DNA of 35,997 bases from a virus. Location: the UHGV virus genome UHGV-0350163; one strand, given 5' to 3'. The position numbers and the translations under genes are program-made. Each line of letters starts with the position of its first letter. The stretch's first letter is position 1. Below are positions 1 to 35,997 of this stretch, piece by piece. A model generated the notes under the pieces. That model had not been told where the DNA came from and made no database searches. It worked only from the letters and a program-made list of their open reading frames with translations.

Positions 1-140
1 AGCTGCTCCTTAGCCACCAGCGGTTCATCTGTGTCGTCGTTGATCAGCGTCGCGCGCTGTTTGCATTCCGGGCAGACGCTCGCTTGCGCCCGTAACATTT
101 CGCGGTTTTTGTAACTTCGCGTTTTTTTCTGGGCTAATTA

Positions 141-192
141 GCGCCCAATTCTGGGCGGGGAGATCTCAGCCAAAAAGCCCAGAATTGGGCGC
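141..192. repeat. Inverted pair of the end motif (ATTCTGGGCG at 148-157, GCCCAGAAT at 177-185) inside a 19-bp perfect inverted repeat (138-156 / 177-195); candidate right-end transposase binding sites
   Basis: Read directly from sequence: reverse complement of 177-195 matches 138-156. Same decamer core as the three copies at 35707-35841. Confidence 0.5.
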
Positions 193-274
193 TAACTTAT
201 TAGTTATGTTTCCGGTGTTTCACTCTCAGCAACAAACAACAGGAGAACGCATAATCGCAGCATAAAATGCATGA

Positions 275-301
275 TGTAAGGAGCTTATATCGCTCCTTAC
301 A
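275..301 (-). terminator. Stem-loop (10-bp stem TGTAAGGAGC / GCTCCTTACA, 7-nt loop) just downstream of the tail fiber stop; candidate terminator of the late operon
   Basis: Perfect inverted repeat 275-284 / 292-301 read from sequence; on the minus strand it is followed by TCATGCATTTTATG, so the U-run is not immediately adjacent. Confidence 0.35.
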
Positions 302-311
302 TTAATATTAT

Positions 312-2690
312 TCACTGGCCAGACAGCGATGCCAGCATGAAATAATGCAGCTCATCATTCCTTACAGACATTATTTCACCAGCCTCCCTGACCAGCTTGC
401 GCTCTCCGGTATCGTATTCTTCCATTGTAAGGAGTCCGTCAGAACCAAGCTCCATACGAGTCCCGTAAACCACTTCATATTCCGCCGGATATTCATCACG
501 ACACAAAATACCGTAATCAAAAGCGTCCAGCCCTTCCTCAGAGAAGACCTTCTGTACGTCCTGAGCAATCACTCCTACATGCCATCTGGCTGCGTTCCCT
601 TTGCTGGACACTGCATCCCTGAAACGGAACCGACAGATATACCCGAGCAGCTTTCTGGCAACCCTTTTTTCTGCATCCGACAGAATTGTTTCGTCCTGTT
701 TATGAGTCCGGTCTGATGTACTGATACTTCCCGTAGCTGAATAAACCTGTGCGGGTCGCCATGAGGCATAACCGATCGAATACGTATTATCTGTATAAGG
801 GCGGAGATTTCCTGATGAATCTATGCGCCATCTCTTTTCTCCTCCTGTGGCATTTGCATCCTGATTCGTTGCAAAATCAATCACTGTCGCTGACCTGAAC
901 ACAGATGAACCACCGCCAATTACCAGCGTGTTATTCCCCTCTGATGCCTGTTGGTCAACTACCAGTATTTTATCCTGATTTTTACCCGAACCACTTTTCG
1001 AGGCAGCGATAATACGATTAAACTGATCCTCACCATCGCTCTTTTGTGCGATGGTGATAACATTGGACCAGATTGCCTCTCTTTGTCGCTGAAAACCATA
1101 TTCTCCGCTGTCTGTAGTGACAGCTTTATATTTTATTCCACCTTCAGCTGACTCCTGCGTTATATAGAATGTCTGGTTATTAGCATTCTTGATGAACACA
1201 TAATTGTCAGCAGGAATGTCATTTCCACTCAGATCTTTAATCGGTGTCGTGGTTGTATGCAGACAAAACCATTTCTGACTCACAGAACGCATATATGCCA
1301 GAATTTCAGACAGGGATGTGAATACCGTCCCCAACACCGGGTTTACCAACCCCTGGGCACTACGGGGAAATGTTCCAATACTGGCATGAGACACATCAAA
1401 CCCCGTGTACAACCAGGCTGCCTGACGAAAATCAATAGCATCTCTGCCAGTACTGAACTCTTTCATCAGAACAATTCCTTTCTGATAAGCCTGTGGTAAC
1501 CCACGCTCCAGAAAGATATAAAGCGAATATATACTGCCGCCGTCGTCAGAAATACAAATTCCTTCGTTCTCAATGCGCGAAGGTGTAAAACCCTGCCTGG
1601 TAAGCACATCTATCATTTTTTGGGGATGAAGAATGGATTCCTGCTGCTTTACTCCATCCGGAGAAAAGACCTTAACCCCCTGAAACTGGTTAAATCCGGC
1701 TGATGCCCCGGTATTAAAATAGCCACCATAAGAACAGGCAATATAATCGTCTCCCACAGCAATTCCCTGACGTTTTGTGAAGCGTCTTGCATAGCTGTCT
1801 GTGCTTTCCGTGATATATCCGGAATCATGCAACGGTAATGTGAATGTCCCTGTCCGACGAAACTGAAAATCATACACCGCAAATACTGTGCGGGTGATCA
1901 GGCCTCCCACTTCCGGCGCTGACTGTTCAACCACCCAGCGGTTTTTACGATAGCTGAACTGGTTGTAAACACCGACATCATGTTCATCAATTAACGGCAA
2001 TACTGAACCAGAAATTGCCCCATCAAGCGAAAACTGTTTCAGTAATCCATTTTCTCCTGACATGAACAAACGTAATCCACCGTAATCCGTTGTCACCACA
2101 AGGCCTTCGCTGACAACGCCACGACCTCCATTATCGACATAATAATATCCCTCATATTCGCCGGATGTTGTGTACTGAACTATAACGTTCCGTGTCTGCT
2201 TTGGCTCAACGGTATAACTCAGATAGATTTTTTCTCCTGTCACCACAAATCCCTGTGGATACATATATTCCGCACCAGACTGAGCAGCCAGCACCGTATC
2301 GTAGTCCGGGAATAATAACGGCAATTCCATTAAGACACTACGGGAATGGTTAGTGTACAGATTGTTCAATGAACCAGCTTTTACATCCTGTAACCCCAGA
2401 TTTTCAAGAGCGCGTTCTACCGTGCCATCCGATTTGATATCGCCAAACGGATTATTGCGGCTTAACAGCAGCGCACGAAGCGCGGTAAGTAGCTGATCCG
2501 TTTTTTGGAGGGCAGGTTGAATATGTACACTACCAAGAACATTAAGGAGTTCCTGCTGTAAATCACGGATTGCCCCCTGCTGATTGTTTAAATAATCAGC
2601 AGTTACGATGGTTCCTTCTATCCCCTGAGTGGGGTCACCATCATGAAACAATTGATCCGGTGTATTTATCGGGGGCATCAGATTTTGCAT
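312..2690 (-). CDS. Tail fiber / tailspike (792 aa) with C-terminal intramolecular chaperone (peptidase S74-like) domain
   Basis: Last gene of the tail module after the baseplate genes. C-terminal ~130 aa contains SDRTHK...[10 protein letters not shown]...[16 protein letters not shown], which resembles the autoproteolytic chaperone domain of endosialidase-type tailspikes (from memory). Coding sequence is visibly more AT-rich than neighbouring structural genes. Confidence 0.8.
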
Positions 2691-3262
2691 TACTGCTCCT
2701 CCTTATATGTGAAATGGCAATAAGTAAAAGCGGGTTTAAGCTCTTTAAATGTTTCTTCCAGTACAGGGGCACCAAAGGAAAGTAACGGTTCCCCGGCAGC
2801 AGATACTCCGGTTCTGAATCTGTAAGCTGGCGTTTTGCTTCCTGTGACATTAACCTGCCAAATCCATCGGGCATCTGTTATATAGAGACGATCACCACAT
2901 CGGTTTACCCCCGTTCTAAATGGATGGAGTTCAGTAATTGTTATGGTGTACCCGAGGCTGGCTGCAAGTTGTTTAAAATAAGGGATAGATAACCCACCAG
3001 TTGCAGCCATCTTTATAAGAATATTTTCTCGGCGTTCCTGCTGCGTGGCACCATCGCGGGGTATTAATTCATACACTCGTTCCCAGTCAGACAGTGTCAT
3101 GGATGCGTAAAATGGTGTGACAGATGCAAGCACTCGTGCAGCTGACGCTTTTACTTCATCCATAATGGCTGCTTCTGCGTTCAGTTCTGTTGAAATATAT
3201 TTCCCGTTCGGGTCATAGCTGACCGGTGGTAACATGGCACGAAATAAATCAACCGTATTCAT
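2690..3262 (-). CDS. Tail/baseplate protein, Mu gp48-like (DUF2313-like)
   Basis: 190 aa ORF between baseplate J-like gene and tail fiber; position and size match Mu gp48. Confidence 0.6.
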
Positions 3263-3265
3263 GTA

Positions 3266-4345
3266 TTAACTCTCCCGGGGAAATGGCTGGATATCAATAC
3301 TCCCCGGACGCAGCCACTCCCATGTGGATTCATTGACAACTGCTTTTACATTATCTGACGGCATAATAATCCGCCGGTCACTGACGCCAGAAATTAATGA
3401 AATCTGAGTTTCCAGTTGTGAAATAATTAATTCCTGCCCCGGCTCCAGTCGGTTCATAAAATCCGTGATAACTTCAGTTATCTGTGGTTTTATCTGCTCA
3501 ACGGTCAGGCCGCTGGTTTTTACCCGGACAACGAAATCAACGGCTTTTTTCGTCGGGGCCAGTACCATCGTGTCCTTTGCTGTGACCGGGCAGACTTCCT
3601 CAATATGTGCCAGCACGGCATTAATCAGTTCCTGCGAGGGAAGGTCATTGGCTGACGTAATGGCCACATCAACCGTCCCCAGTCCACGACGTAATGGCTC
3701 CACATATGCCGAGGTAACGCCATCCACTTCCAGCGCCCAGCGTTTGTAATCATATTTATTACCGCCAGCGGGCGGCCTGCGCAGAATGTCCAGATAACGC
3801 GCCAGCAGGTCGGCGTTGCTTTCCCTGTCTGTTCCACCGGTCAGGGATTTAATCGTCACCGTGCTGTTGATGCCTTCCGGCGGACTGACCAGCGTTGCCG
3901 TCTGCGTCGTGGATGCATTCGTCAGTGCCCCCGTGGCAGTGCTTTTTACCGTCACCTCTGCGCTGCCTTCGTGGCCGATGGTGCAGTCTGCTGTGGTGGA
4001 CACGCTGACACCTTCACCACGAATTTCCGCACCGGCTGGCAGTGTCTTACCGGGAGTGCCGGTAATCACCACCGGACCGGATGAGGCGGTCGCTTTTTTA
4101 CGAAAAACATTGCGCGTGCGGCAGTGCAGCTCCAGATATTCAGGGTCTGCCGTGTCAGGAAACACCTGACGGAGTATCCACCCCTGATGCATATAAAGCC
4201 CGTCAGCCACACCGGATACGGCATTTGCACGAATGCGGTAATCGCTGTCAGCGCTGGTGTCGATGGTTTCTCCCGGCAGGGCGTTAGCGATATCACGTAG
4301 CTGGCGTTCTGTGTTTTCAGCAACGCCCGGAACAGGAAACGGCAT
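3266..4345 (-). CDS. Baseplate J-like protein (Mu gp47-like)
   Basis: 359 aa ORF in conserved baseplate position; start overlaps upstream stop. Confidence 0.7.
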   Translation of the reverse strand: MPFPVPGVAENTERQLRDIANALPGETIDTSADSDYRIRANAVSGVADGLYMHQGWILRQVFPDTADPEYLELHCRTRNVFRKKATASSGPVVITGTPGKTLPAGAEIRGEGVSVSTTADCTIGHEGSAEVTVKSTATGALTNASTTQTATLVSPPEGINSTVTIKSLTGGTDRESNADLLARYLDILRRPPAGGNKYDYKRWALEVDGVTSAYVEPLRRGLGTVDVAITSANDLPSQELINAVLAHIEEVCPVTAKDTMVLAPTKKAVDFVVRVKTSGLTVEQIKPQITEVITDFMNRLEPGQELIISQLETQISLISGVSDRRIIMPSDNVKAVVNESTWEWLRPGSIDIQPFPRES

Positions 4346-4695
4346 TACATAATCCTCACAGGGTGTTCAAATGTCTGCGGTGTGCCCGCGTTATCCGTGA
4401 CGGTGATTAACAGCAACAGCCAGCCGCGCTGCCCCGGTTTCGTGTCAACAGTAATGGATTTTGCCCGCCCGTCATTGAGCAGGGGCTGAAGTGCCTGGCT
4501 GGCATACTGCGCCGCCAGCCGGTGAACACGGGAAACGTCTTTTTCCCGCTTCAGCTCGTGCAGGCGTGACCCCAGCAACGCATCCGCCCAGTAACTGCCA
4601 AGCGGTGTCGCCAGTCGCAGATAAACCGCGTTATGGAGTGTATAAATCCGGCGGCGTTCGTAGTCGCCGGTTGCAGGTGAAATCGTCTGGTCCAT
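4345..4695 (-). CDS. Small baseplate protein (Mu gp46-like)
   Basis: 116 aa ORF between gp45-like and gp47-like genes. Confidence 0.6.
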   Translation of the reverse strand: MDQTISPATGDYERRRIYTLHNAVYLRLATPLGSYWADALLGSRLHELKREKDVSRVHRLAAQYASQALQPLLNDGRAKSITVDTKPGQRGWLLLLITVTDNAGTPQTFEHPVRIM

Positions 4696-4748
4696 GCCGC
4701 CAGTCTGGCAGCATGGACAGGTCAGAATCAGGTGAGGGTGTTCAGCAC

Positions 4749-5402
4749 TTAATTAACCGGCGTGTCAGACATGCCGTGTGGGGTTGGGTGTTTGTGTGTT
4801 CCGATTTTAACGCCATTAATGGTGACATCAACGGAGGTAAGCACACCACCCACATGGTTGATGTTGCCTTCAAAAGTGGCGGCGTATTCCTTGCCGCCAC
4901 GGATGGCCATGCCACCGTTGCCGGTGATTTTACCTTCCACCGTCAGCTTATCGCTGGCCGTCAGTAACGGTGTCGTGAATGCGGCGTTCTCCTCTGCCTC
5001 AACCTCATAGCGTTTGCATTTCACCCGGTAAACGTCACATTCTGTTTCAATAATCCGCCCGCGCTTCAATACGATTTTCGCGCCTTCGTCGGTATACAGG
5101 GCCACCTCGCCGGGTTTCAGTTCCGTCAGGCGATATGCGCCGTGCTCTGTGGCCACGATGACGGTATGGGAGGTATTGCCATTCAGCGGAACGGCAATAC
5201 CCATTGAGCCGGGCGGCGGGGATGTGGTGAGGCCGTAATGCTGAAAATACTCCGCACCATCCAGCTGTTCGCCTGCCAGCCCGTTCAGCTGAAGTAGCTG
5301 TACTTTGGTCGAACTGTCCACCGTACCGATCACCACCCTGAATGCCTGGCGAACGGCGGCCAGTGCCTGCTGTACGCGCTGATTAACCTTGTCCCACATC
5401 AT
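4749..5402 (-). CDS. Baseplate assembly / spike protein V-like (Mu gp45-like)
   Basis: 217 aa ORF translationally coupled to upstream gene; position matches Mu gp45. Confidence 0.7.
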   Translation of the reverse strand: MMWDKVNQRVQQALAAVRQAFRVVIGTVDSSTKVQLLQLNGLAGEQLDGAEYFQHYGLTTSPPPGSMGIAVPLNGNTSHTVIVATEHGAYRLTELKPGEVALYTDEGAKIVLKRGRIIETECDVYRVKCKRYEVEAEENAAFTTPLLTASDKLTVEGKITGNGGMAIRGGKEYAATFEGNINHVGGVLTSVDVTINGVKIGTHKHPTPHGMSDTPVN

Positions 5403-6610
5403 TTCTCCCAGACCTTAACAATGGCGACCTCTTTTTTCTTTTTGCCCCTGCGGTGATGGCGTTTCTTCTCGCGCGGGAAGGCGTCAGGTATCCACACGCC
5501 GTCCTCCTTAAAGCGAAGCCGGGTTGTCTGCCCGTTCCGGCCTCCGCTGAACTCACGCCCCATCAGGAAAAAGATGGCATCAATGCCGTGGAGTTCGCTG
5601 ACAATCCGCACCCGCTGGCCGGGCTGCCACAGAACACCATCTGCCGTGCGATGACCTGCAACCAGTGCGACGATATCCAGCCCCGACAGGCGGGCATCAC
5701 TCATCATTTTTTTTGCGCGCCAGCTCACCTGCTCCAGATTGCTGGTGTCGCCCTGGGTGATAATCTGCGGGCGGTAATAATCCACGGTGGGGTCGGTGGC
5801 CACGGCTTTCATGTTATGAATGCCTGTCTGACCACTGTCCGTATTACCGCTGTCCTGCCCGGATAATGTGCGCACGCTGCCGTCCTCGTTCCAGATATCC
5901 AGCGGCACCACGGCCACCTGTTTCTTGCTGTCTGCGCGGCGGGCGTGGCTCTGGGCCAGCACCGTCAGTTCGGAGAAACAGCCGTTAATGGATCGGGTAT
6001 CGTCCAGCTCCATCACGTTGTTCCCGGTGCCGTTCAGCTTCAGAATCAGCGTATCCACCGGCGTGGTGGTGTAGTCAGGGCCACCCACAACCAGCGTCCC
6101 GTCAGGCTCAAACCACGGCCATAAGCCGCGACCGGCGGCAGCTTTGGCCAGTGCATCCCACGCACGCATCCCCGGCTCAATAACAACTTTGTCATTACGT
6201 GACACACCGGACGCCTGTATACGGATGCGCTGTATCCCCAGTGGTCTGACTATCCTGTCGATGACCTCGTCCAGCGTCAGCTGGTTGGCGCTGAACACCG
6301 GCGCGGCACAGTCCACCAGGATGGCGGCATCATCACGCCCGGACAGGGCCAGCGTGCAGCTCTGACGGGACACACTACGGCGCACGCTGTCTATGCGCCC
6401 ACTGAGCACCGTTTCATCTCCCACCTGCAACCGGATTTGTGCGCCCCGGACGATATCCGCCGGGAACACCTTTTCAGGCAGCCCCAGCTGAAGCTGCCAG
6501 CCGTCGGCAGCTTTCAGGAAATCGCTGTCAATACGATAACTGCTCCAGTCAGAATGCGACCTTCCGGCAATGACCAGGCTAATTTTGTCTTCGTTATTTG
6601 GCGTAGGCAT
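5399..6610 (-). CDS. Tail protein P (Mu gp44-like, late control D family)
   Basis: 403 aa ORF following N-like gene, overlapping by 17 nt. Confidence 0.7.
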   Translation of the reverse strand: MPTPNNEDKISLVIAGRSHSDWSSYRIDSDFLKAADGWQLQLGLPEKVFPADIVRGAQIRLQVGDETVLSGRIDSVRRSVSRQSCTLALSGRDDAAILVDCAAPVFSANQLTLDEVIDRIVRPLGIQRIRIQASGVSRNDKVVIEPGMRAWDALAKAAAGRGLWPWFEPDGTLVVGGPDYTTTPVDTLILKLNGTGNNVMELDDTRSINGCFSELTVLAQSHARRADSKKQVAVVPLDIWNEDGSVRTLSGQDSGNTDSGQTGIHNMKAVATDPTVDYYRPQIITQGDTSNLEQVSWRAKKMMSDARLSGLDIVALVAGHRTADGVLWQPGQRVRIVSELHGIDAIFFLMGREFSGGRNGQTTRLRFKEDGVWIPDAFPREKKRHHRRGKKKKEVAIVKVWEK

Positions 6611-7943
6611 TAATTACCACCCCGGCGGTTATGTTGTTCGGGTCACGTAACTGCGGGTTCAGGCGTTGCAGTTCTGCCGCACGACTGTAATCGCCGTACC
6701 ACTGCCACGCCAGCAACAGCAGACAGCTGTCCGCCTGCACCTGTTTCTGCGTCAGCGGTGGGCGGCGTGACAGAACCAGCAGGCCGACATCCTGCACGGA
6801 TGCCGCCACGTTTTTCATGCTCTGAATGATTTCCGGGTACATCAGCCCCAGCGGTGATGCGGTTTCGGTTATCCGTTCGCGTTCGCCTTCATAGCGTTCA
6901 CGGAACAGCGTGATGGCAGCCTGTAAGCGGGTGCGCACATCCCCGACCAGTCGCCCGATATCCGCCGGTATAAGCTGTTCTGACTGCGCATCATCAACCA
7001 GTATCGCCATTGCAACACTGGCCAGTTCAGATGCGGCCTGTGTTGCGTAAACTGCTTTCACATCCTGCACATCGTCTGGCGAGGCATCCGCAGGAAGTAC
7101 CACCTCCGGTACTTTATCGCCACTGACCAGGGCAACAGGCAGCGCAACAAATTCATCCATATCAGTGATGACCTTATTCCAGCAGTTCATCACTGTCGCA
7201 GAACTGGCGACGGTCGTCTCTCCTGCCAACCCGGTCCGGGTGGCAGAATCAACACGTTGCAGAACCGGCACCGGTTGCCCGACATCTGATGTGTGGATTT
7301 CCAGCACCTCTGCCAGTTCATTGATAAATTTTCCGGGTTCGCCTGCCAGTGACACGATATTATCGACAGTGGAGACAAAATCACTTTTGAACGACAGCAG
7401 GGTATTCACCAGTGTGGCACGCACTGTCTGGGCTTTTTTAATCATGCTGTTAACGGTATTTAAAGGTGCAGTAACGGCATCAAAAAAATCACTTAACCGC
7501 GCCTGTAAAGTGTCCAGTTCATCAAACAACTGTTGCGCGAACAGCTCCGGTAACGGGGTGCTGAACAACGCGCTACCGGTGCGGTTTTCCAGAAAACTCA
7601 TGTCAATGGTGCAGCTGTCCGGGCTTTCTGCGTCATGGCGGATGCTGTAGCCGGTCACAATCACCGACGGCACAGAGCCATAAACCGGATGAATCAGTTC
7701 ACCATCGCCGCCTTCATCCAGGGCGGCGGTCAGTTTCCCGAGTTTATATTCATAGTCATCGCCCCACAGGAACGCCGTCATGCGGAACGGTCGCGCCTTG
7801 CGTCCGAGGTCGTGCAAATCCGCCCCGTCAACAAACGGGTATTCATAGACCGCATGGTCGCGGCTGATTTGTTCGTCAGTATTCAGCACCTCAAACTGCA
7901 CGCCACGAAAGGAAGCGTTTTGCAGGTTTTCAGCCCAGCCCAT
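6594..7943 (-). CDS. DNA circularisation protein N-like (Mu gp43-like)
   Basis: 449 aa; N-terminus MGWAENLQNASFRGVQFEV resembles the Mu N family N-terminal signature (from memory); directly downstream of the tape measure gene. Confidence 0.75.
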   Translation of the reverse strand: MGWAENLQNASFRGVQFEVLNTDEQISRDHAVYEYPFVDGADLHDLGRKARPFRMTAFLWGDDYEYKLGKLTAALDEGGDGELIHPVYGSVPSVIVTGYSIRHDAESPDSCTIDMSFLENRTGSALFSTPLPELFAQQLFDELDTLQARLSDFFDAVTAPLNTVNSMIKKAQTVRATLVNTLLSFKSDFVSTVDNIVSLAGEPGKFINELAEVLEIHTSDVGQPVPVLQRVDSATRTGLAGETTVASSATVMNCWNKVITDMDEFVALPVALVSGDKVPEVVLPADASPDDVQDVKAVYATQAASELASVAMAILVDDAQSEQLIPADIGRLVGDVRTRLQAAITLFRERYEGERERITETASPLGLMYPEIIQSMKNVAASVQDVGLLVLSRRPPLTQKQVQADSCLLLLAWQWYGDYSRAAELQRLNPQLRDPNNITAGVVINAYAK

Positions 7944-13840: not shown

Positions 13841-13843
13841 GGG

Positions 13844-27175: not shown

Positions 27176-27183
27176 GCCGGAAC

Positions 27184-27594
27184 TCAGTATGTGAAATAGA
27201 CAGTTGCCACGCCGTTATAGTGATCAAACGACACGGCGTTTACCTCATAACTGGCCGGGAGCTTCGAACCAAGAACGTATCCGGGCCACGTTTTCCATGG
27301 AATTTCTCTGCTCTCACTGTCGCCATATACCGTACATCCCAGTGAGCCTACAGCTTCATAAGAACGCTTACCGCACGTTATGAACCCCAGATTTAGCTTA
27401 CTGCCCTTAACAGAAATCGGGAGAGCACTGGCTGATGCGTTAGCAGCGTCCTGCTCCTGTTGGCTTGCGATATTCGCAGAGTTCGCAGCAGCTGCGGCAG
27501 CCGTAGTCGCAGCGGCAGATGCCACAATAACTGCTGAAGCCTGTGCCTGTTGGGTAACGGTCAGCAATGCCGCCACAAAAACCATTTTCTTCAC
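27184..27594 (-). CDS. Secreted protein with Ala-rich low-complexity linker
   Basis: 136 aa, GTG start preceded by AGGAGGT; signal peptide MKKMVFVAALLTVTQQAQA, then Ala/Ser/Thr-rich segment and a ~75 aa C-terminal domain. Confidence 0.6.
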   Translation of the reverse strand: MKKMVFVAALLTVTQQAQASAVIVASAAATTAAAAAANSANIASQQEQDAANASASALPISVKGSKLNLGFITCGKRSYEAVGSLGCTVYGDSESREIPWKTWPGYVLGSKLPASYEVNAVSFDHYNGVATVYFTY

Positions 27595-27609
27595 CTGGCA
27601 CCTCCTTTA

Positions 27610-27783
27610 CATACCGTGATTTTTCCTGCGGTTTTGCGCCGCGCTGGGCTTTTTGCAACAGCTGTGCAACATCACCCCGCAACACCCCGTCAACCTCACT
27701 CGTCTGTTACTAATCCTCAACCATCGCCAGACCCCAACACCGTTTCTGCGAGCTAACAGAATTTTTGCCTTACGGTTTTTCAT
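27610..27783 (-). CDS. Small basic protein, paralogue B (58 aa), not in ORF track
   Basis: Hand-translated: MKNRKAKILLARRNGVGVWRWLRISNRRVRLTGCCGVMLHSCCKKPSAAQNRRKNHGM. ATG overlaps the stop of paralogue A (ATGA). Confidence 0.4.
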
Positions 27784-27956
27784 CGTACTGCGTACCCTTT
27801 CTTCCGCCTGTTCTGTGACGCAGTAGGCTTACGCTTTGCGGCAAAAGCCACCTGACCAAATGGATGGAGTACCGCTATCTTATGGTTGCTAATAACCAGC
27901 TCCACCACACGCACAGGCCGCTGTAAAAGAAGTCGTTTTGCTTTACGGTTTTTCAT
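27783..27956 (-). CDS. Small basic protein, paralogue A (58 aa), not in ORF track
   Basis: Hand-translated: MKNRKAKRLLLQRPVRVVELVISNHKIAVLHPFGQVAFAAKRKPTASQNRRKKGYAVR. AGGAG 9 nt upstream of ATG. First 24 nt nearly identical to paralogue B. Confidence 0.4.
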
Positions 27957-27960
27957 CGTT

Positions 27961-28149
27961 TCATTCTCCTGTATTTACTACTGACTCTGCACTGTCAGCC
28001 CTGCGGCGCTCCTGAAGTTCCAGCATTGCGGCCCGGAAATCCTGCCACCATTCCTCATCGGCAACGGGTGTGTTCCGTTCCAGCACCTTGTCCGCATCGG
28101 CAATCAGTCTGCTCAGACTCTTATCGCTTATTCTGGTTTGCTGGTTCAC
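27961..28149 (-). CDS. Small acidic hypothetical protein
   Basis: 62 aa ORF, translationally coupled to neighbours. Confidence 0.4.
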   Translation of the reverse strand: MNQQTRISDKSLSRLIADADKVLERNTPVADEEWWQDFRAAMLELQERRRADSAESVVNTGE

Positions 28150-28370
28150 TGCGCCGCCTCCTGTTTTGCCACTTTAAACGCCCGTAACATCGGAACCGTT
28201 TTACCGGTGATGACGGTTCTCATTAAAAGACCGCCACCGCTCTCATGGCGCACTTCAGGGGCTACAAACAACGCCGCATCCACAACCCGGTTATAGCGGC
28301 GAAACTCCCAGAGCCAGCAGGTAACAATGATTTTTGCTTTAGTCCCATAGTTATAAAATTCAATATTCAT
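28146..28370 (-). CDS. Hypothetical protein
   Basis: 74 aa ORF, overlapping start/stop with neighbours. Confidence 0.4.
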   Translation of the reverse strand: MNIEFYNYGTKAKIIVTCWLWEFRRYNRVVDAALFVAPEVRHESGGGLLMRTVITGKTVPMLRAFKVAKQEAAQ

Positions 28371-28594
28371 TTGCAGTTAAACCTCCTTTTGTGACGTTCT
28401 ACAGCGGCTTTCATGGCGTTGTGCACGGTTCTTTTAATAATCCGGCGTCCCACACTGTCATAGAACCGCCACCGGGAAGCCCCCGGATATTTGGGAAACT
28501 CAACCGCCGCGCTGCCGTCATTCATCCTGTATTCGTGGCGTTCTCCTGGCGGCTGGTATATTGCTTCGGTAACACTGAGAAGTTTAAAAGCCAT
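28367..28594 (-). CDS. Hypothetical protein
   Basis: 75 aa ORF, overlapping start/stop with neighbours. Confidence 0.4.
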   Translation of the reverse strand: MAFKLLSVTEAIYQPPGERHEYRMNDGSAAVEFPKYPGASRWRFYDSVGRRIIKRTVHNAMKAAVERHKRRFNCK

Positions 28595-28596
28595 CG

Positions 28597-29307
28597 TTAT
28601 CCCCTCCCCAGTGCCAGCGGTCTGTTGCTCTGACCATTAACTCCCTGATGCAGTCTGGCGTTTTTCCCGGCGATAAAACCGGCAGTAGCGGCAAACTCTG
28701 CACCCCGACACGCTTTAGCTGTGCGCATATCCCCGTCGCGCAGTCCTTTAGTGCTGTGCAGGTTCTTTCTGTAAAGCTCAAGGCGGCTTTTTTCTTCCGG
28801 GGATACGTCATACACCGCAATGACATCACGGGCACCAAAGACCCAGCCTTCGCAGAACTGGTCGCCACGGGCTACCCGCGTGGACGGACCACAACGTTTG
28901 CAGTGTTTATCCTGATATTTCTTGCGCTCTGCCATCATCTGACGGGAAAGCACATCAAACGCGTAGGCCGCAATTTCCGGGCGGCTGTCAGGACCATAAA
29001 AACGAACGTAACGTTTGAGTGAACCAGAAGCCCGGTATTCGCCGGATATGTAACACTCGACACCGAAGGCTTTACAGACCAGGTCACACAGGATGTGCAT
29101 ATAACGCGGCGGTGTACTGGCATCACTCGGCGCACCCGCGCTGGCAGCTTCCTGAATGTCGAACAATTCAGCGTCGTTTTCGCTGATACCATGCTGGCGC
29201 ATATAAGCCTGGGCTTTTGCAATAGCGTTAGCGGCTTCTTCCGGGCTTGATGTCCCTCTTGCAAGGCGTAACAGCTTTTTAATTTTGGCGATGTATTTAT
29301 TTTTCAT
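28597..29307 (-). CDS. Early-region protein with DUF2786-like N-terminus
   Basis: 236 aa; N-terminus KIKKLLRLARGTSSPEEAANAIAKAQAYMRQHGI resembles a prophage DUF family (from memory); Cys-rich central part (CKRCGP...FCEGW). Confidence 0.5.
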   Translation of the reverse strand: MKNKYIAKIKKLLRLARGTSSPEEAANAIAKAQAYMRQHGISENDAELFDIQEAASAGAPSDASTPPRYMHILCDLVCKAFGVECYISGEYRASGSLKRYVRFYGPDSRPEIAAYAFDVLSRQMMAERKKYQDKHCKRCGPSTRVARGDQFCEGWVFGARDVIAVYDVSPEEKSRLELYRKNLHSTKGLRDGDMRTAKACRGAEFAATAGFIAGKNARLHQGVNGQSNRPLALGRG

Positions 29308-29320
29308 GGTCGTCTGAACC

Positions 29321-29503
29321 TCAGCATCCTGAATTCTGAATTACGCAACTTCCGGCACGGCCTTCAGGAACGTGGGGAGTTCGTTCTGGCTGCGGTACTG
29401 AATGAGCATCTGCTGTCGATTGAGAACTGGTCGCAAGACGATTAAAACAAACGATTGTCAGATTAATTTCGCGGGCGAACTTTTTTTGCTTTGCGATATT
29501 CAT
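29321..29503 (-). CDS. Hypothetical small protein
   Basis: 60 aa ORF with GAGGAAG RBS 7 nt upstream of ATG. Confidence 0.4.
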   Translation of the reverse strand: MNIAKQKKFAREINLTIVCFNRLATSSQSTADAHSVPQPERTPHVPEGRAGSCVIQNSGC

Positions 29504-29522
29504 AAATAAACTTCCTCAGATT

Positions 29523-29560
29523 CAGGCGTAAGCCAGCCCTGGCGGGTTTACGCCTGTTTT
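29523..29560 (+). terminator. Stem-loop (9-bp stem CAGGCGTAA/TTACGCCTG, 16-nt loop) followed by TTTT on the plus strand; candidate plus-strand terminator or 5'-UTR structure
   Basis: Read directly. U-tract follows only in the plus-strand sense, antisense to the early operon; on the minus-strand mRNA it sits just upstream of the RBS of the 29321..29503 gene. Confidence 0.3.
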
Positions 29561-29585
29561 AAATAACAATTAAAAACAAATTAAA

Positions 29586-29777
29586 TTAATGCGGTGCTTT
29601 CAGTGTTTCGACTTTTACGAAATAAGGCTCGACATTAATTTCAACCACACAACCACATTTAAAATCTCTGGCAGGTGAAACGGTTTTCACCACACGACCA
29701 CCACGCAACGCCGGATGTGCAGTGTGCATGAAGCGAGTCCCTACCGGATACTGCTTATTAAAGTTCTTCGCATTCAT
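29586..29777 (-). CDS. Hypothetical small protein
   Basis: 63 aa ORF. Confidence 0.4.
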   Translation of the reverse strand: MNAKNFNKQYPVGTRFMHTAHPALRGGRVVKTVSPARDFKCGCVVEINVEPYFVKVETLKAPH

Positions 29778-29991
29778 GGCGTGGCCTCCAGCCCTTCAGG
29801 TGAGCGTTAGCGCAGAACTCCGCACGATGTTCAGCCCAGATGCGGCGCAGGGTGCTACACGGGCTTTGCGCTGCCTTGCGCCACAGTTTTTCTGCCTCAT
29901 CATAATCGCCGCGTTGTTCTGCTCTGGATGCACCCAGCGAATACGCCGCGCAACGATTTCCGGCTCTGTACTCTTTGATATCCTGATGCAT
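29758..29991 (-). CDS. Hypothetical protein (internal start MHQDIKEY)
   Basis: ATG at 29991 sits 1 nt after the stop of the upstream gene; the track ORF 29758..30081 is over-extended. Confidence 0.45.
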   Translation of the reverse strand: MHQDIKEYRAGNRCAAYSLGASRAEQRGDYDEAEKLWRKAAQSPCSTLRRIWAEHRAEFCANAHLKGWRPRHECEEL

Positions 29992-29992
29992 G

Positions 29993-30637
29993 TTAAACCC
30001 CTGCAATATCAAGCGGGATTGCGCGGTATTCATCAGAATCACCAACGCGCTCATACACACGAATATAGCTCTTGCTGCCAATCACCTGGACGGCTTCACC
30101 AATCAGCATCATGGCGTTATTCCAGCGTTCGTCCTCAATTTCGAGGCGACGCAGGGCCAGAACGCGCCCTGTGTTAATGTTGCCTTCCTTGTCCGTGCTG
30201 AATGCCTCGCTAATGATGGCTTTAATTTCAGGGCGCGCACCTTCCGTCCAGTCAGCTAGGCAATCATCAATCAGCGACTTCGCGGTCTGAATGCGTTCAT
30301 CAAACGCGATACGGTCCTGCATGGCGCGCTGAATCTTGTATCGCCCGTCAAAGCTGTAAAGCGTGATATTGCCTTTTTTGCCGCCTTTCACAGCGCCGTA
30401 TTTCTCCGCCGACAGGTCAATAAATGCCTGGATATCACCAAACGCACGCAGTTTCAGTTCCCGCAGCGAGGCGGAGGCAGCAATCACCATCTCCACAAGC
30501 TCACCGACCAGCTGCTCGCGGTCGCGGTCAATATCTTTGATAAGGCTTTCAGGTGTCATTACGCCACGGGCATCCACCCAGTAACCTTCAGGCGCTTGAG
30601 TTTTCGTGTATTGCTTAACTTTATTTTCAGTCGTCAT
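29993..30637 (-). CDS. Early-region protein (DUF3164-like)
   Basis: 214 aa ORF; family assignment from memory only. Confidence 0.5.
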   Translation of the reverse strand: MTTENKVKQYTKTQAPEGYWVDARGVMTPESLIKDIDRDREQLVGELVEMVIAASASLRELKLRAFGDIQAFIDLSAEKYGAVKGGKKGNITLYSFDGRYKIQRAMQDRIAFDERIQTAKSLIDDCLADWTEGARPEIKAIISEAFSTDKEGNINTGRVLALRRLEIEDERWNNAMMLIGEAVQVIGSKSYIRVYERVGDSDEYRAIPLDIAGV

Positions 30638-30666
30638 AATTAAATTACCTCAGTGATATTTACAGA

Positions 30667-30882
30667 TTAATGTGTGTTATGTGCGCGAGGCGCAACGTTT
30701 TCAGAAAAAAGATTCACGCCGTTATAGTCATTTCTAAGCGTTTCCTTGATAACATCATGTAATCCTGTTGCCACCTGAAGCTCCCTTTTGGAAGTGCCAT
30801 CCTTCGAATAACTCCCTGTAATCCGGGTAAGAGTCGCGCCTTTTTCATTGGTATAGATAATTACTTCTAATTTAACCGCCAT
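30667..30882 (-). CDS. Hypothetical protein
   Basis: 71 aa ORF with GAGAGGAAA RBS. Confidence 0.45.
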   Translation of the reverse strand: MAVKLEVIIYTNEKGATLTRITGSYSKDGTSKRELQVATGLHDVIKETLRNDYNGVNLFSENVAPRAHNTH

Positions 30883-30894
30883 TCTGATTTCCTC

Positions 30895-31122
30895 TCATTG
30901 CCATACGACGGTACAGCCGTCGATACAGGACGTTTTAACCACGCGGCGCAGGCCGCTGAATGTCTGAACGATTTCCGTTACCGGCCATACAGGACCACCC
31001 ACAGGCGGGCAGGCATAAACCACAGGTAAACGGTGATGCTGCCCCGTTACGCGACCGCCAGTGGTATGGATAGCCACACGGGCACGGGAACGGACGGCAT
31101 TAATGGCCTGCTTTTCCATCAT
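30895..31122 (-). CDS. Hypothetical protein (start MMEKQ or MENK)
   Basis: Track ORF 30895..31212 trimmed to internal start; GGAGAA sits 5 nt upstream of ATG 31122. Confidence 0.4.
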   Translation of the reverse strand: MMEKQAINAVRSRARVAIHTTGGRVTGQHHRLPVVYACPPVGGPVWPVTEIVQTFSGLRRVVKTSCIDGCTVVWQ

Positions 31123-31133
31123 TTTGTTCTCCA

Positions 31134-31152
31134 TCAGTGAATTAACATTTCT
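31134..31152. repeat. 19-bp perfect direct repeat, copy 1 (TCAGTGAATTAACATTTCT)
   Basis: Identical to 31507-31525; lies between the inserted 110-aa gene and the next gene. Confidence 0.9.
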
Positions 31153-31160
31153 CTGCTGTA

Positions 31161-31493
31161 TTATCTGAGCGTAAACGCCAGTCGGGGCTGATACCGGGGC
31201 AGGTGGGCACACATGCGTGCAAGGCGGTAAGCCCGACGAAACCCCTGCAAAGTCTGCTCAAAAGGAATAATCATTAATCGCGCACAGCATTCATCAACAT
31301 CCCAGTCGTCGCTGGTATTTCCGGTTCCATTGATTTCCCGTTCGCGGGAATATAAATCAATACGCAGTTCACCCGGCACGAAGCAATCAACAAACGGAAT
31401 AATTTCACCGGGGGTTCCATTAAAATAAATACAACCATTACGACCGATATTCCGTAGTGCTTTAATTTCTTTTTTTACGGCAATCTGTTCCAT
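31161..31493 (-). CDS. Hypothetical protein (110 aa) bracketed by the 19-bp direct repeats
   Basis: ORF with AAGG/AGGT RBS; occupies the segment between the two repeat copies. Confidence 0.55.
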   Translation of the reverse strand: MEQIAVKKEIKALRNIGRNGCIYFNGTPGEIIPFVDCFVPGELRIDLYSREREINGTGNTSDDWDVDECCARLMIIPFEQTLQGFRRAYRLARMCAHLPRYQPRLAFTLR

Positions 31494-31506: not shown

Positions 31507-31525
31507 TCAGTGAATTAACATTTCT
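31507..31525. repeat. 19-bp perfect direct repeat, copy 2 (encodes the last codons and stop of B)
   Basis: Identical to 31134-31152. Confidence 0.9.
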
Positions 31526-32400
31526 GCGAATTTATCTATGGCCTGCACACTGACCGGCGCATCGCTGATATCGCAAATCCGGTACACACCGCGCGCCAGT
31601 TTGAACAGGCGGCGGGTATTACCCAGCGAGCGCGCGTAAAGCGCCTCGCTGATTTCCGGTTCTGCTGCTTCCGGCATCAGCCCGGTGGCTATCTGGTTAA
31701 AATCTTCCTGCGCCAGCGTGTCGCCCAGGTTAAGCGCCAGCGCCACGCGGCTGTATAACTGCGCAAATTCACCACGACGCCCCTTGAGATTAATCAGAAG
31801 ACGAGGCATACCCGCCAGGACAACCCCGATACCCGCTTTATCATGCAGACGGCGCAGAACCTCCAGTGCGCGATAGGGGAGCAGTTCAGCTTCGTCCACC
31901 ATCAGCAGACGACCGGAATCACGCAGTTCGCGCACACAGGCATCAATCAGTTCGTGAATGTTGCCGCGAACCTTTACCCCCAGCTGGCGGCACAACTCCT
32001 CAAGCAGTGTCCTGGCTGTATAGCCCGGGTCAGCCTCAATCAGGACCGCATCCCGGTTTCTGGCTGCGTATTCACGCAGAATCATTGTTTTGCCAAGACC
32101 AGCTGCGCCATACAGTACACAGATTTCACATTCCAGGTGAGCGTAGGCCAGCACCTCCAGTCCTTTGGCAGCCATACCGGTGGCAACAAATTTCGCTTTA
32201 ATACGGCGGCTGTTTTCCTTTTCCCGCTCACGGGTCACAAAGGCAGAAATGCGTTCTTCAATATCAGCCATATCGCCCTGATATTTACCCTGTAAATACT
32301 GGTTGATAACGGCGCTGCTACGACCAATAGCACGGGCGACGTGGGTCTGCGTATAGCCGCGACGGGCCATTACGTCATTTAATTGCGTAATTAAACTCAT
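31507..32400 (-). CDS. B: Transposition ATPase B (MuB-like, AAA+)
   Basis: 297 aa; N-terminal HTH-like region, Walker A (GAAGLGKT) and Walker B-like (LLMVDEAE); directly downstream of the transposase. Confidence 0.9.
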   Translation of the reverse strand: MSLITQLNDVMARRGYTQTHVARAIGRSSAVINQYLQGKYQGDMADIEERISAFVTREREKENSRRIKAKFVATGMAAKGLEVLAYAHLECEICVLYGAAGLGKTMILREYAARNRDAVLIEADPGYTARTLLEELCRQLGVKVRGNIHELIDACVRELRDSGRLLMVDEAELLPYRALEVLRRLHDKAGIGVVLAGMPRLLINLKGRRGEFAQLYSRVALALNLGDTLAQEDFNQIATGLMPEAAEPEISEALYARSLGNTRRLFKLARGVYRICDISDAPVSVQAIDKFAEMLIH

Positions 32401-32418: not shown

Positions 32419-34461
32419 TTAACGGTTGTTTGTGCCGTTTTTCTTTAAATTGCGCTCGCGTTCAGATGCGAATAAATAAAGTTCTTCTTTTTCCTTTTTC
32501 TCCGGGCGCTCCAGTCCATATCCCAGATTAAAGTCTGGCTTCTGCGTAATAGCCGGGGTAAGCTCGCGTTTAGCCTCTTCGATTTTCTGCGTGGCCCGTG
32601 CAATGCGGCCCCTGACGCGTTTCTCCAGTTTTTGTTCGATAACTGGTTTAGCGAAGGCATCAACCTTGTTACCGTTCCAGATGGCATCGCAGATATAAGA
32701 GCCATCAGCCCGCCGGACAATGACGCTGTTTGCATCATGAATATCGTAACTGACCCTGACTTCATTCCCGTGCTCTGCGGCCAGATCATATGAGTAATAA
32801 ATATTGTTGAATAACTGAATTTCCCCGCGAAATGTTTTGCGCGTCACTTCCGGTCTGAACATTTCATGCAGTTCTTCCGGCGACAGGAAATCAATTTCAA
32901 CATTCTGCTCTTTTATCAGTTTCCGGCGATACGCTGCCGGGCTGTAATATTCGCCATCCTCTTTGCGGGGAAGGCTGCTGTGTGGCCGGTTGTTATAGCG
33001 TCTGACCTCCAGCTCTATGGCCGCCATCAGTTGCTCAAAGGTGGGGATTTCATCCCTCGCCTTAACCTGCCGTTTTGTCAGTTCTTTCCCTTTGTGGGTG
33101 GCCTTAATGGCCGACTGCATAATCCGTTGCTGCATCATTACGGTTTCCTTGTCTGCATCCTTTGCGCAGTACGTCTGGAAACTCAGTGCCACGTCTTTGG
33201 GTATTCCTTTGTTTGCCCGTTCTATTACCCCGCGCCCCTGCGGGTTACCCGGTATCCCCGTGTGATGCTCCACACCCAGCCGGGGCAGAATCCCGGTAAT
33301 ATCGGCATCAAGCACCCGGTTTTTTTCGCCGCCCCCGTTATCGGAATAATAAATCAGCGGTATCCCGTGCTGTGCCATGCCGTAACGCAACGCATCAGCA
33401 ACGGCTATCACGTTTTCCGACAGGGACAGTGACCAGCCCACAACAAAGCGCTGCCCCGCATCCATAACCAGCGTCACTTCTGGCCGGAAAATATTGCCGG
33501 TCAGGGGGTTAAACGCGGTCATTTTCATACAGTGACCATCCCCGACCCATACCGCATTAACCGGTAATGATGTCCACTCGCGCCGCACAAAGGGATTGAG
33601 CGAACGCCAGGCTGAACCTGTGGAGCGGAAACGCTCCTTAACAATCACCGGGACGCTGCTTAACACTCGTCTTACTGCGTGAACTGAAGGCAGTGCCGCC
33701 AGCATTCCCGCATCATTCGCGTGTTTCTCATGCCACCAGGCTGAAAACTCGCGATAAGCGTATTCAACGGTCGGGCGCTTCCATGAGCGATAGAACATAA
33801 AGAAATCGCTCAGCCACCAGACCTGCTCCCACGGAGTTCCCTTATGATGACCGGGAGCCAGTAACGCCAGTAACTGATTGGCATCACCGCGCGCCATCAC
33901 CCAGCTGGAGTACCAGCTATCCAGGCTGCCGGTGCTGACACCGGTTCGCTTTCCCTGACGTGCATTTGCAGTATTCGCTGCTTCGATAATGCGGTCAGGT
34001 AACGCCCCCATGCGCACACCATCAACGATGTGCTTTAACGCGGCCTTCCTGGTCATTCCGGCGTATTCACGCAGTTTATGCACTTCAGTAGCCAGCAATA
34101 TCCGCGCATCAGCAATGGCCTTTTGCTTGTCGGTCAGTGCCTGGACTTCGCGTAATGCCAGTTCCGGGCATTTGACCATCACTTCCAGTTCATCGCGAAC
34201 GGCGACGTTTTTAACTGCCTTCTGCTCAACCACGGCGGGCAGTTGTGCATCTTCCAGGACCTGATGAGTCAGGCGCTTACGTAAAACTTTCTGCGCTTCA
34301 GCGGGCAGGCTGTCGATGTGATACTCGAATGCTTTTGTGCCTTCACGCTTGCGCTTCCATTCCGGGTGCGTCTCTGTGATCCGATTGAGCGTCCATCGCA
34401 CCCCCTGAACTGTACCGGGCAAACGAGGAAGACCGGCCAGCTCATTGGCTGAATAAAACAT
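32419..34461 (-). CDS. A: DDE transposase A (MuA-like)
   Basis: 680 aa; N-terminus (ANELAGLPRLPGTVQGVRW...IDSLPAEAQ) and the central DDE core (WVGDGH...DNGGG) resemble MuA (from memory); ATG overlaps ner stop (TAATG). Confidence 0.9.
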   Translation of the reverse strand: MFYSANELAGLPRLPGTVQGVRWTLNRITETHPEWKRKREGTKAFEYHIDSLPAEAQKVLRKRLTHQVLEDAQLPAVVEQKAVKNVAVRDELEVMVKCPELALREVQALTDKQKAIADARILLATEVHKLREYAGMTRKAALKHIVDGVRMGALPDRIIEAANTANARQGKRTGVSTGSLDSWYSSWVMARGDANQLLALLAPGHHKGTPWEQVWWLSDFFMFYRSWKRPTVEYAYREFSAWWHEKHANDAGMLAALPSVHAVRRVLSSVPVIVKERFRSTGSAWRSLNPFVRREWTSLPVNAVWVGDGHCMKMTAFNPLTGNIFRPEVTLVMDAGQRFVVGWSLSLSENVIAVADALRYGMAQHGIPLIYYSDNGGGEKNRVLDADITGILPRLGVEHHTGIPGNPQGRGVIERANKGIPKDVALSFQTYCAKDADKETVMMQQRIMQSAIKATHKGKELTKRQVKARDEIPTFEQLMAAIELEVRRYNNRPHSSLPRKEDGEYYSPAAYRRKLIKEQNVEIDFLSPEELHEMFRPEVTRKTFRGEIQLFNNIYYSYDLAAEHGNEVRVSYDIHDANSVIVRRADGSYICDAIWNGNKVDAFAKPVIEQKLEKRVRGRIARATQKIEEAKRELTPAITQKPDFNLGYGLERPEKKEKEELYLFASERERNLKKNGTNNR

Positions 34462-34697
34462 TACGCCGCCTTACTGGCATACCGGCTTGGCCAGATCTCC
34501 GCAGGTTCCACACCAATAGCATCGGCTATGATGCGTTCATATTTAGGGCATGAGCGATACAGTGCATTTTTTAAAGAGTCTTTTTTTAGACCAGCGCGTT
34601 CAGAAAGTTCACGCAATGTAAAACCTTTGGTGTGCACAGCGGCAACGATGTACTCGCGGTGCCAGTCTTTGTTCATTACTTCATTTCTAACCATCAT
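34461..34697 (-). CDS. ner: Ner-like DNA-binding regulator
   Basis: Track ORF trimmed to MMVRNEVMNKDWHR...; shares the DWHR...NAL.R..PK.E.IIA.A....P..IWPSRY pattern with Mu Ner (from memory). Confidence 0.75.
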   Translation of the reverse strand: MMVRNEVMNKDWHREYIVAAVHTKGFTLRELSERAGLKKDSLKNALYRSCPKYERIIADAIGVEPAEIWPSRYASKAA

Positions 34698-34714
34698 TAG
34701 GTTACCCTTAAAAA

Positions 34715-34757
34715 TTATCCGTGCGGATAACACCGCCGTGTTATCCCTTCGGATACA
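34715..34757. promoter_or_regulatory. Two palindromic operator-like sites (TTATCCG-TG-CGGATAA at 34715-34730; TTATCC-CTTC-GGATAC at 34741-34757) in the divergent repressor/ner control region
   Basis: Read directly; the region 34698-34879 separates divergent ner (minus) and repressor (plus) genes, where Mu has its operators. Confidence 0.45.
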
Positions 34758-34879
34758 AGTATTGATCCATATGTAGCCCATGTAAAGCAAAAATAACCCT
34801 TTCTTTGTATTTTCTTTTTGATTTTGGTCTTTATGTGGTTTTTGCAATTAAAATCAACTAGTTATAGAGGAAAGAAAAA

Positions 34880-35527
34880 ATGACCAGAAATGATGATGCT
34901 TTTTCTTTTGTCGACCGGGGAAAAGAAAGTTTCAGAGAGCGTTTAGTAAAGCTGATAGGTAATCGCAGTGTCAGAACTGCTGCGAGTGATTGGGGAATCC
35001 CCCCTTCAACCTTAAACAACTACATTCATAAAGGAACTGAGCCTTCTTTTAAAATAGCTTGCCTTATCTCAGATAAAGAGCAAGTGAGCTTAAATTGGCT
35101 CGCTTACGGTAAGGAACCCACCACCAAAGAAGGTTCTCTATCAAATCAAACAGCGCAGCCTTCTCCCGATATTACAAACGAGCTAGTTAACGAGTTATTG
35201 AAAAGAGCGTCCACAGAAGTTAAGGAGCAACTGATAAGTGCAATATGCGATATGGGCATTAAAGGAATCTTGGAACGCCTACAGCAACCAACCAGGCAAA
35301 CTAAGCAGACCGACAGCGACCTGGACGAACAAGAGACTGCCATCAGAAGCCTAAACATCAGGGAATCGCTTAAAGACGCTATTTGCATGGCATTGGCTGG
35401 TAATGAAGAAACTGATAAAGAGATTTTGCGACGCATCGAATCTCGTGCACGGACTGGGTCGCCAGGTGGTGAGACCATTGCCACGCTGGAGCAAGAAACG
35501 AAACCTGTAAGCAAAAAACCAGCATGA
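34880..35527 (+). CDS. Prophage repressor, CI-like with XRE-type HTH
   Basis: 215 aa; N-terminal HTH (SVRTAASDWGIPPSTLNNYIHKG...LNWLAYG); only plus-strand gene, divergent from ner. No S24 peptidase-like C-terminal domain recognised. Confidence 0.75.
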   Translation: MTRNDDAFSFVDRGKESFRERLVKLIGNRSVRTAASDWGIPPSTLNNYIHKGTEPSFKIACLISDKEQVSLNWLAYGKEPTTKEGSLSNQTAQPSPDITNELVNELLKRASTEVKEQLISAICDMGIKGILERLQQPTRQTKQTDSDLDEQETAIRSLNIRESLKDAICMALAGNEETDKEILRRIESRARTGSPGGETIATLEQETKPVSKKPA

Positions 35528-35706
35528 ACGCCTACTACTTGGTAGGCGTATGCTGCCAACTAACTAGCGACATCCAACAAAACCAATACCGACAACTGAT
35601 AAGAAAGGAATAAATCAGACAAGATTAGAACGGGCTTTAGAATCTTTTAAACGAGTTTTAAAATCTTTTAAAAGGAGATCGCTTTCTTACACCACCAGAT
35701 CAAAAG

Positions 35707-35841
35707 CGCCCAGAATAAAGCGTAAAAAAAGGCACTTTTGGTCATTTCTCACAAATCCGCCCAGAATCACACTAAATCACCATACCCCGCGCCACACAAG
35801 GCTTGCAGGTTCTACCAGGCTGCACGAACTCCGCCCAGAAT
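35707..35841 (+). repeat. Three direct copies of CGCCCAGAAT (35707-35716, 35758-35767, 35832-35841); candidate left-end transposase binding sites
   Basis: Read directly; spacing 51 and 74 bp; same decamer occurs inverted at the other end (148-157). Confidence 0.55.
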
Positions 35842-35847
35842 TGATCA

Positions 35848-35997
35848 CTACCCCACATTTTGTGGTGCATTTTGTTGCTGTGCCAACAGTTCTGCAGCCA
35901 GTGCGACGGTTTTTTGCGGGGCAAACGGGCGTTCGCAACGGCTGCAACGTTGTAGATGGAACGTCGCGCGGGTATAGAGATCGGCTTTATTGGTGAC
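35848..35997 (-). CDS. Possible 3' end of a host gene interrupted by the prophage (partial)
   Basis: Minus-strand frame is open from the window edge to TAG at 35848-35850 (50 codons); no motif recognised; weak evidence. Confidence 0.2.

Follow-up and report, generated by a model that had tools for sequence, protein, structure and literature searches.

A Mu-like transposable prophage in hyfH of Escherichia coli and its lineage with 4-bp target duplications

The transposable phage Mu carries six sites for its transposase MuA: L1 is set apart from L2 and L3 at one end, while R1, R2 and R3 are contiguous at the other, with R3 inverted. Mu uses Gam to protect linear DNA. In the sections available of a review of transposable phages, the insertion scar is given as 5 bp for Mu and 6 bp for B3, and a '5/6 bp duplication' serves as a recognisable hallmark (PMC8705779). 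The present analysis concerns a Mu-like prophage in UHGV virus genome UHGV-0350163, a stretch of 35,997 nt that was analysed as a whole and is referred to below as the window. Judged from its sequence, the element at 110-35857 is very probably a complete temperate myovirus, probably functional, that would use Mu-type transposition for both replication and integration, and that sits inside hyfH of E. coli. The prophage call is in itself routine, one more Mu-like element in E. coli, whose insertion inactivates hyfH (hydrogenase 4). The one feature that a specialist might not expect is a target duplication of 4 bp, which bears on the geometry of the transpososome and on the rules by which transposable prophages are delimited.

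The prophage measures 35,748 bp, is oriented on the minus strand and has termini of the form 5'-TG...CA-3', its tips reading TGTAAC... at 110 and ...CCCCACA at 35857. Both limits come from homology: in a megablast search of 5,426 complete E. coli genomes, similarity to eight copies at other loci begins at 110 and ends at 35857. An earlier sequence-only reading had placed a near-complete prophage at 112-35857, with putative ends at both window edges. Its right boundary was exact and its left boundary was 2 bp off, the ends themselves are borne out by the independent copies, and the qualifier 'near-' falls, since both ends lie inside the window. Outside them, positions 1-109 hold part of hyfH (hydrogenase-4 subunit H), with the left copy of the target duplication, TTTT, at 106-109, and positions 35858-35997 hold the rest of the gene, with the right copy at 35858-35861. 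The empty site was reconstructed by joining bases 1-109 to 35862-35997. This 245-nt query matches hyfH at 100% over its full length in at least 346 genomes, and with a coverage of at least 80% in 4,288; both flanks are therefore host DNA, and the comparison with an uninterrupted locus that the sequence-only reading had proposed returns an intact hyfH, not continuous phage DNA. The insertion in hyfH itself is found in none of the 5,426 genomes. The window contains about 55 open reading frames (ORFs), with a GC content of 45-60%, and neither tRNAs nor Rfam families were found in it. All phage genes lie on the minus strand except that of the repressor (plus strand), and the coordinates below refer to the minus strand unless stated otherwise.

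The 4-bp duplication is well supported. Direct repeats of this length flank nine of nine independent insertions, at nine unrelated loci and with nine different duplications: TTTT in hyfH (the window), AATG in a TonB-dependent receptor gene of AVS0151 (L002; NZ_CP124372), AGTG in eutC of enteropathogenic E. coli E2348/69 (L003; NC_011601, ~2715935-2751670), AGCG in ypdF of Ec55 (L004; NZ_CP059130), CCAG in a genomic island of Ecol_AZ146 (L005), AAGT in the carB-caiF spacer (L006), CGTA in a lambdoid prophage (L007), TGTC at yfcC/pta (L008), and TTCG in the tail genes of another prophage (L009). The same length is common to phages resembling Sp18 of E. coli O157:H7 Sakai. Four of four Sp18-like prophages (L010 and L053-L055), whose transposase A is 44% identical to that of the window, are flanked by 4 bp (AGAG, TACG, TTCG and ACTG), and one GenBank record already has it, as the depositors of LC727895 annotate a 4-bp 'duplication due to insertion' for an Sp18-like phage insert. 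With the two lineages pooled, 4 bp is seen in 13 of 13 insertions made by transposases only 44% identical, and a 5-bp stagger is therefore not universal among Mu-family transposases. No stated 4-bp duplication in Mu-like phages was found in the accessible literature, and the accessible papers on Sp18 or on Shiga toxin-producing E. coli do not discuss duplication length. Tentatively, and with slightly more doubt than belief, it may be proposed that Mu-type transposases cutting their target with a 4-bp stagger make up a clade, common to this lineage and the Sp18-like phages and widespread in Enterobacterales. If true, the 4-bp class would amount to natural variation of the Mu transpososome that has gone unreported and would offer a handle on what sets the stagger, and it would matter to prophage finders that seek scars of 5-6 bp.

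The ends of the element carry short repeats. Six exact copies of the 9-mer GCCCAGAAT occur in the window, five of them within 150 bp of a terminus, and a copy with one mismatch adjoins the right-end tip. At the phage left end (attL-like, 35701-35857), three direct copies of the motif (35701-35716, 35752-35767 and 35826-35841) are directed towards the tip, 51 and 74 bp apart. The phage right end (attR-like, 110-195) has two tip-directed copies 22 bp apart (126-134, which bears the mismatch, and 148-156) and an inverted copy at 177-185. The motif core begins 17 nt from each tip. In this layout L1 of attL stands apart from L2 and L3, while R1 and R2 of attR abut and R3 is inverted, and the three copies of the GCCCAGAAT core at each end are putative transposase-binding repeats.

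A single transcription activator of the Mor/C family is encoded at 25175-25642, the sole member that Pfam and PHROG detect in the window. The dyad GGGTGCTGAACACCC is common to the three largest gaps of the late region, and the 13-mer GTGCTGAACACCC has exactly three copies, all intergenic and all on the coding (minus) strand: at 24820-24832 upstream of the lysis genes (holins), at 16661-16673 in the G-I intergenic region before I, and at 4736-4748 upstream of gp46-gp47-gp48-fiber. With up to two mismatches, the late motif is found at five sites where 1.2 are expected, a count that none of 100 shuffles reached. It is present at syntenic positions in all eight relatives, and neither Mu nor the Sp18-like phages contain GGGTGCTGAACACCC. 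The dyad is probably the binding site of the Mor-family activator and would mark three late operons; the late promoters Plys, PI and PP of Mu offer a parallel to this arrangement.

A comparison with Mu (AF083977) shows how far the resemblance extends. Genome size, module order, a repressor divergent from the early operon, the pair of A and B, three transposase sites at either end with matching layout, tips of the TG...CA form, late control of the Mor/C type, and a Mu-type head with a contractile tail are common to both. The sequence-only reading had the gene order follow Mu from the early region to the contractile tail, and reciprocal tblastn and phmmer searches confirmed that the two genomes are collinear, with matches of 24-43% identity for ner, A, B, kil, gemA, Mor/C, H, F, G, I, T, gp35, J, L, N, P and gp45-48. 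Its assignment to Mu-like transposable prophages agrees with the presence of a Mu-type DDE transposase, a MuB-like AAA+ protein, and Mu portal, F, G, I and T, and Pfam and PHROG also recover gp36, gp37, sheath, N, P and gp45-47. The departures from Mu that it listed were upheld as well. Gam, Gin with its G segment, and Mom have no tblastn or phmmer match, and no Pfam or PHROG family in ORFs of at least 50 residues; the same holds for Com, S and U, and Mu c, lys, gp27 and gp28 have no match in the window. The repressor is of the CI type (Pfam Phage_CI_repr, phrog_3037), the activator at 25175-25642 is alone in its family, an orphan beta-class methyltransferase lies between a gene like that of the small terminase (TerS) and the gene of the large terminase (TerL), and the fiber is of the tailspike type (phrog_1171 at 1e-127 plus Peptidase_S74). 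Mu, in contrast, has a Mu-type repressor, Mor plus C, Gam, a G segment with Gin, Com and Mom, and a 5-bp duplication, whereas the window has a different endolysin and holins, non-orthologous TerS and TerL, an extra methyltransferase and a 4-bp duplication. The lineage can be described as a pared-down Mu plan: Gam and the invertible fiber segment are missing, there is only one activator, whose late motif is easy to recognise, and the place of Mom is taken by a methyltransferase.

The short duplication could be an artefact of misplaced ends, the true length being 5 bp as in Mu, and two of the nine insertions (L003 and L005) do allow a 5-bp reading if the terminal T is taken as host DNA. However, most insertions do not yield 5 bp when either boundary is moved by one base, and the uninterrupted hyfH site, CGCGG-TTTT-GTGG, holds exactly one TTTT. 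The same procedure returns 5 bp (GCCGC) for a genuine Mu in E. coli W, and the LC727895 depositors arrived independently at 4 bp for a related phage, which makes an artefact very improbable. Scarcely credible at all is the proposal that the element is a variant of phage Mu and belongs, with D108 and SfMu, to the genus Muvirus. Its genes are ordered as in Mu, its genome is of the same size, and Ner, B, portal and F are 32-43% identical to their Mu counterparts, but megablast finds no match to Mu, D108 or SfMu among 50,697 phage records, and a 25-kb query recovers from the deposited phages only ~100 bp of the fiber N-terminus. A is marginally similar to MuA (29% over only 85 residues, with PDB entries 1bcm and 4fcy at E ~5e-4), the repressor, lysis genes, TerS/TerL and fiber are non-orthologous, c, gam, gin, com and mom are absent, and the duplication is 4 bp, not 5. 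Membership of Muvirus is refuted by the lack of a nucleotide-level match, the barely alignable A, the duplication and these absences. By sequence comparison, the element belongs, as an ordinary member, to an E. coli prophage lineage that is known but uncharacterised and separate from Muvirus.

A further alternative is that the prophage only looks complete and is a defective, immobilised remnant. Its Gam is missing, and some relatives have pseudogenised fiber genes or gin remnants. Against this, the copy retains both ends, its six terminal repeats, the DDE triad and all core morphogenesis ORFs in intact form, the core ORFs have the same lengths as in the relatives, and the absence of Gam is common to the whole lineage and is not a lesion of this copy. 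Moreover, the lineage is found at nine different loci with clean duplications and has therefore been mobile recently. A remnant is unlikely, and a complete, probably functional prophage is the preferred interpretation, although three observations count against it. The window has no Gam homologue. With up to one mismatch, GCCCAGAAT is not above chance overall (12 copies against 9.0 expected), and because the total is near chance, the evidence for the end repeats is the clustering of exact copies at the tips, not their number. Finally, a mere ~40 nt separates the late motif from the start codons of I and gp46, a short distance for a promoter and leader. Mu-like prophages of Citrobacter rodentium, of this or another lineage, transpose actively (PMC3072379), and DNA of Sp18 is packaged in the absence of induction by mitomycin C (PMC2669165).

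A life cycle can be proposed from these components. Transposase A, assembled on the terminal repeats, would cut the target with a 4-bp stagger, compared with 5 bp for MuA; B would deliver target DNA, and lytic growth would proceed by replicative transposition. The CI-type repressor is transcribed divergently from a ner-A-B-kil early operon, and the single Mor-family activator would switch on three late operons, namely lysis-packaging-head, head-tail and baseplate-fiber. Packaging would rely on the DUF1804 protein and a non-Mu-type TerL acting through a Mu-type portal. The orphan methyltransferase, expressed late, might protect progeny DNA from restriction, an anti-restriction role that Mom plays in Mu. 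Host range would be determined by a single fiber, which is not invertible and would fold with the help of an S74 chaperone of its own.

The eight relatives (L002-L009) each align with 87-95% of the element, and the nucleotide identity is 93-97%. They have in common with the window the termini and terminal repeats, the 4-bp duplication, the order of the genes and the late motif, and all but L007 have the methyltransferase, whereas they differ in insertion site, in mosaic immunity regions and in fiber modules. The fiber module of the E2348/69 prophage consists of S/U plus an inverted U'/S'-like set and a gin remnant. A 31-residue remnant, 77% identical to Mu Gin, accompanies inverted fiber-assembly genes in both L003 (36226-36318) and L008 (36423-36515), and an invertible fiber segment was therefore once present in the lineage; in the window copy no gin remnant is left. 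Nested insertions were also observed: L009 (AP041814) lies in the tail genes of a myovirus-type prophage, and L007 (CM135183) in the nin region of a lambdoid one. No description of the E2348/69 prophage was found in the accessible literature.

Within the E. coli genome set, the transposase gene is present in 59 of 5,426 genomes, the Mu left end in 44 and an Sp18-like left end in 233. Among GTDB species representatives, the left-end sequence has no exact-pattern match, and at this level of identity the lineage seems to be confined to E. coli. A protein-based scan found relatives at 26-61% identity only, the closest (43-61%) in other Enterobacterales. Sp18 and Sp18-like phages, for example the LC727895 insert, belong to the same transposase clade and share the TGTAAC left tip and the 4-bp duplication. 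Unlike the window, they keep Mu-type gam, lys, the gp27/gp28 terminase, an invertible fiber segment with gin, and com/mom; their terminal repeat is TTTGATACC instead, and their tips are TG...TA, not TG...CA. The nearest deposited phage genomes are those of Klebsiella phage ST405-OXA48phi1.1 (MK388859; A 45%, portal 53%) and Pseudomonas phage VW-6B (MF975721; A 49%), both below 55% protein identity, without nucleotide similarity and from other hosts. For A, Yersinia phages Tongde and YpM_5 reach 45%, and Mannheimia 3927AP2 and Haemophilus SuMu 40%. Pseudomonas phages of the D3112/MP22 type are closer in the portal (46%) than Mu is (37%), but their transposase is only ~30% identical and they are siphoviruses with non-contractile tails. 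The lineage has no cultured representative or close genome among deposited phages.

In the immunity region, the CI-type repressor (34880-35527, plus strand) diverges from the early operon. D3112-type phages also have a CI-like repressor. The window protein has no S24 peptidase domain, and RecA-mediated self-cleavage is therefore unlikely. A scan of the immunity region for sigma-70 consensus promoters returned weak, chance-level sites only. Across 34610-35857, the window is 81% identical to L002, L004 and L005, which are otherwise 97-98% identical to it, and 98% identical to L006 and L008, which makes the lineage mosaic in its immunity types. An AT-rich tandem repeat of 21 nt (AACGGGCTTTAGAATCTTTTA / AACGAGTTTTAAAATCTTTTA) occupies 35629-35670, between the repressor stop codon and the innermost transposase site of the left end.

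The early operon opens with a Ner-like repressor (34461-34697; HTH_35), followed by transposase A (32419-34461), a protein of 680 residues with a Mu-type N-terminal helix-turn-helix, a DDE core and Mu-transpos_C. Pfam scores are 37.6 bits for HTH_Tnp_Mu_1 (cutoff 23.3) and 60.5 for Mu-transpos_C (cutoff 21.7), rve falls below its cutoff, and phrog_310 matches at 1e-193. In a MAFFT alignment with MuA and Sp18-like A, the triad D308, D374 and E414 stands opposite D269, D336 and E392 of MuA, and is intact. Adjoining A is the gene of a MuB-like AAA+ target-DNA activator (31507-32400; AAA_22, TniB), 32% identical to MuB over 214 residues. The semi-essential region that comes next (25741-31493) contains many small ORFs and no Gam. 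It includes Kil (30895-31134), a DUF3164 protein (29993-30637) that has no match in a PDB sequence search, an ANR regulator (29758-29991), a DUF2786/DUF7168 protein (28597-29307) and a GemA/gp16-like protein (26241-26639). NCBIfam gives nothing for the repressor, the fiber, the DUF3164 protein or the accessory ORFs. Two adjacent paralogues of 58 residues (27607-27783 and 27780-27956, both phrog_1380) form a tandem duplication. The only segment missing from all eight relatives, 25731-26186, makes up most of an ORF at 25741-26244 (167 residues) in a variable slot between gemA and mor; its product has an N-terminal signal peptide and matches phrog_19473, a family of unknown function.

Downstream of the activator, the lysis cassette (23286-24732) encodes two holins (24280-24672/24732 and 23994-24290) and an endolysin with GH108 and PG_binding_3 domains (23465-24010). 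After the endolysin comes a 60-residue protein with an LPAGC lipobox (23286-23468). It is a candidate o-spanin-like lipoprotein, with no i-spanin partner identified. A DUF1804 DNA-binding protein occupies the small-terminase (TerS-like) position (22558-23058), and the large terminase (20129-21769; phrog_38) is not orthologous to Mu gp28 by BLAST. Between them lies the gene of the N6/N4 DNA methyltransferase (21771-22511), which scores 85.3 bits against PF01555 (N6_N4_Mtase; cutoff 26.7). It is placed in the beta class because motif IV (DPPY, residue 33) precedes motif I (FMGSG, residue 202). With the DUF1804 gene and TerL as neighbours and no nuclease nearby, the enzyme is an orphan, and it was the only match when PADLOC was run on ten accessory proteins. 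L007 lacks the gene, its DUF1804 gene being followed immediately by TerL, which marks the methyltransferase gene as accessory.

The head genes begin with portal H (18530-20125), whose identity falls from 53% with the Klebsiella phage through the D3112/MP22 type to Mu. They continue with F (17377-18543) and G (16829-17380), which like H belong to head morphogenesis, the protease/scaffold gpI (15504-16673), a virion protein of phrog_1731 (15108-15503) and the major capsid protein gpT (14189-15139). The 209-nt gap between G and I (16620-16828) lies at the genome centre and has phased A/T tracts (GTTTTTAAAAGGGTTTTAAAAACGGTTTTATTT). In Mu, the genome centre is the location of the strong gyrase site.

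Neck and connector genes (DUF2635/gp38-like, Gp37 (K), Gp36 (J) and gp35/HI1506-like) occupy 12560-14185, followed by the sheath (11146-12567) and tube (10759-11133). Two tail chaperone ORFs lie in overlapping frames: the first (10379-10762) is overlapped for ~40 codons by an open -1 frame that runs into a second ORF of 52 residues (10206-10364). The arrangement is suggestive of a programmed frameshift, as in Mu gp41; the overlap contains no slippery heptamer of the canonical XXXYYYZ form. The tape measure (7943-10216), the baseplate hub genes for the gpN DNA-circularization protein (6594-7943), gpP (5399-6610) and the gp45 spike (4749-5402), and the baseplate wedge genes for gp46 (4345-4695), gp47/Baseplate_J (3266-4345) and a gp48-like protein (2690-3262) lead to the tail fiber or tailspike (312-2690).

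The fiber, of 792 residues, has an SfV-type baseplate-adaptor N-terminus and a C-terminal Peptidase_S74 intramolecular chaperone (residues 659-721; 38.6 bits in Pfam, cutoff 22) with PDB matches to T5 pb1, the GA-1 appendage and endoNF. Its body matches phrog_1171, annotated 'tail spike', and no catalytic (depolymerase) or other enzymatic domain was identified in it. The gene is intact in the window and annotated as split in two relatives. Just past its stop codon, on the same strand, a perfect 11-bp hairpin at 274-302 is likely to be the terminator of the late operon.

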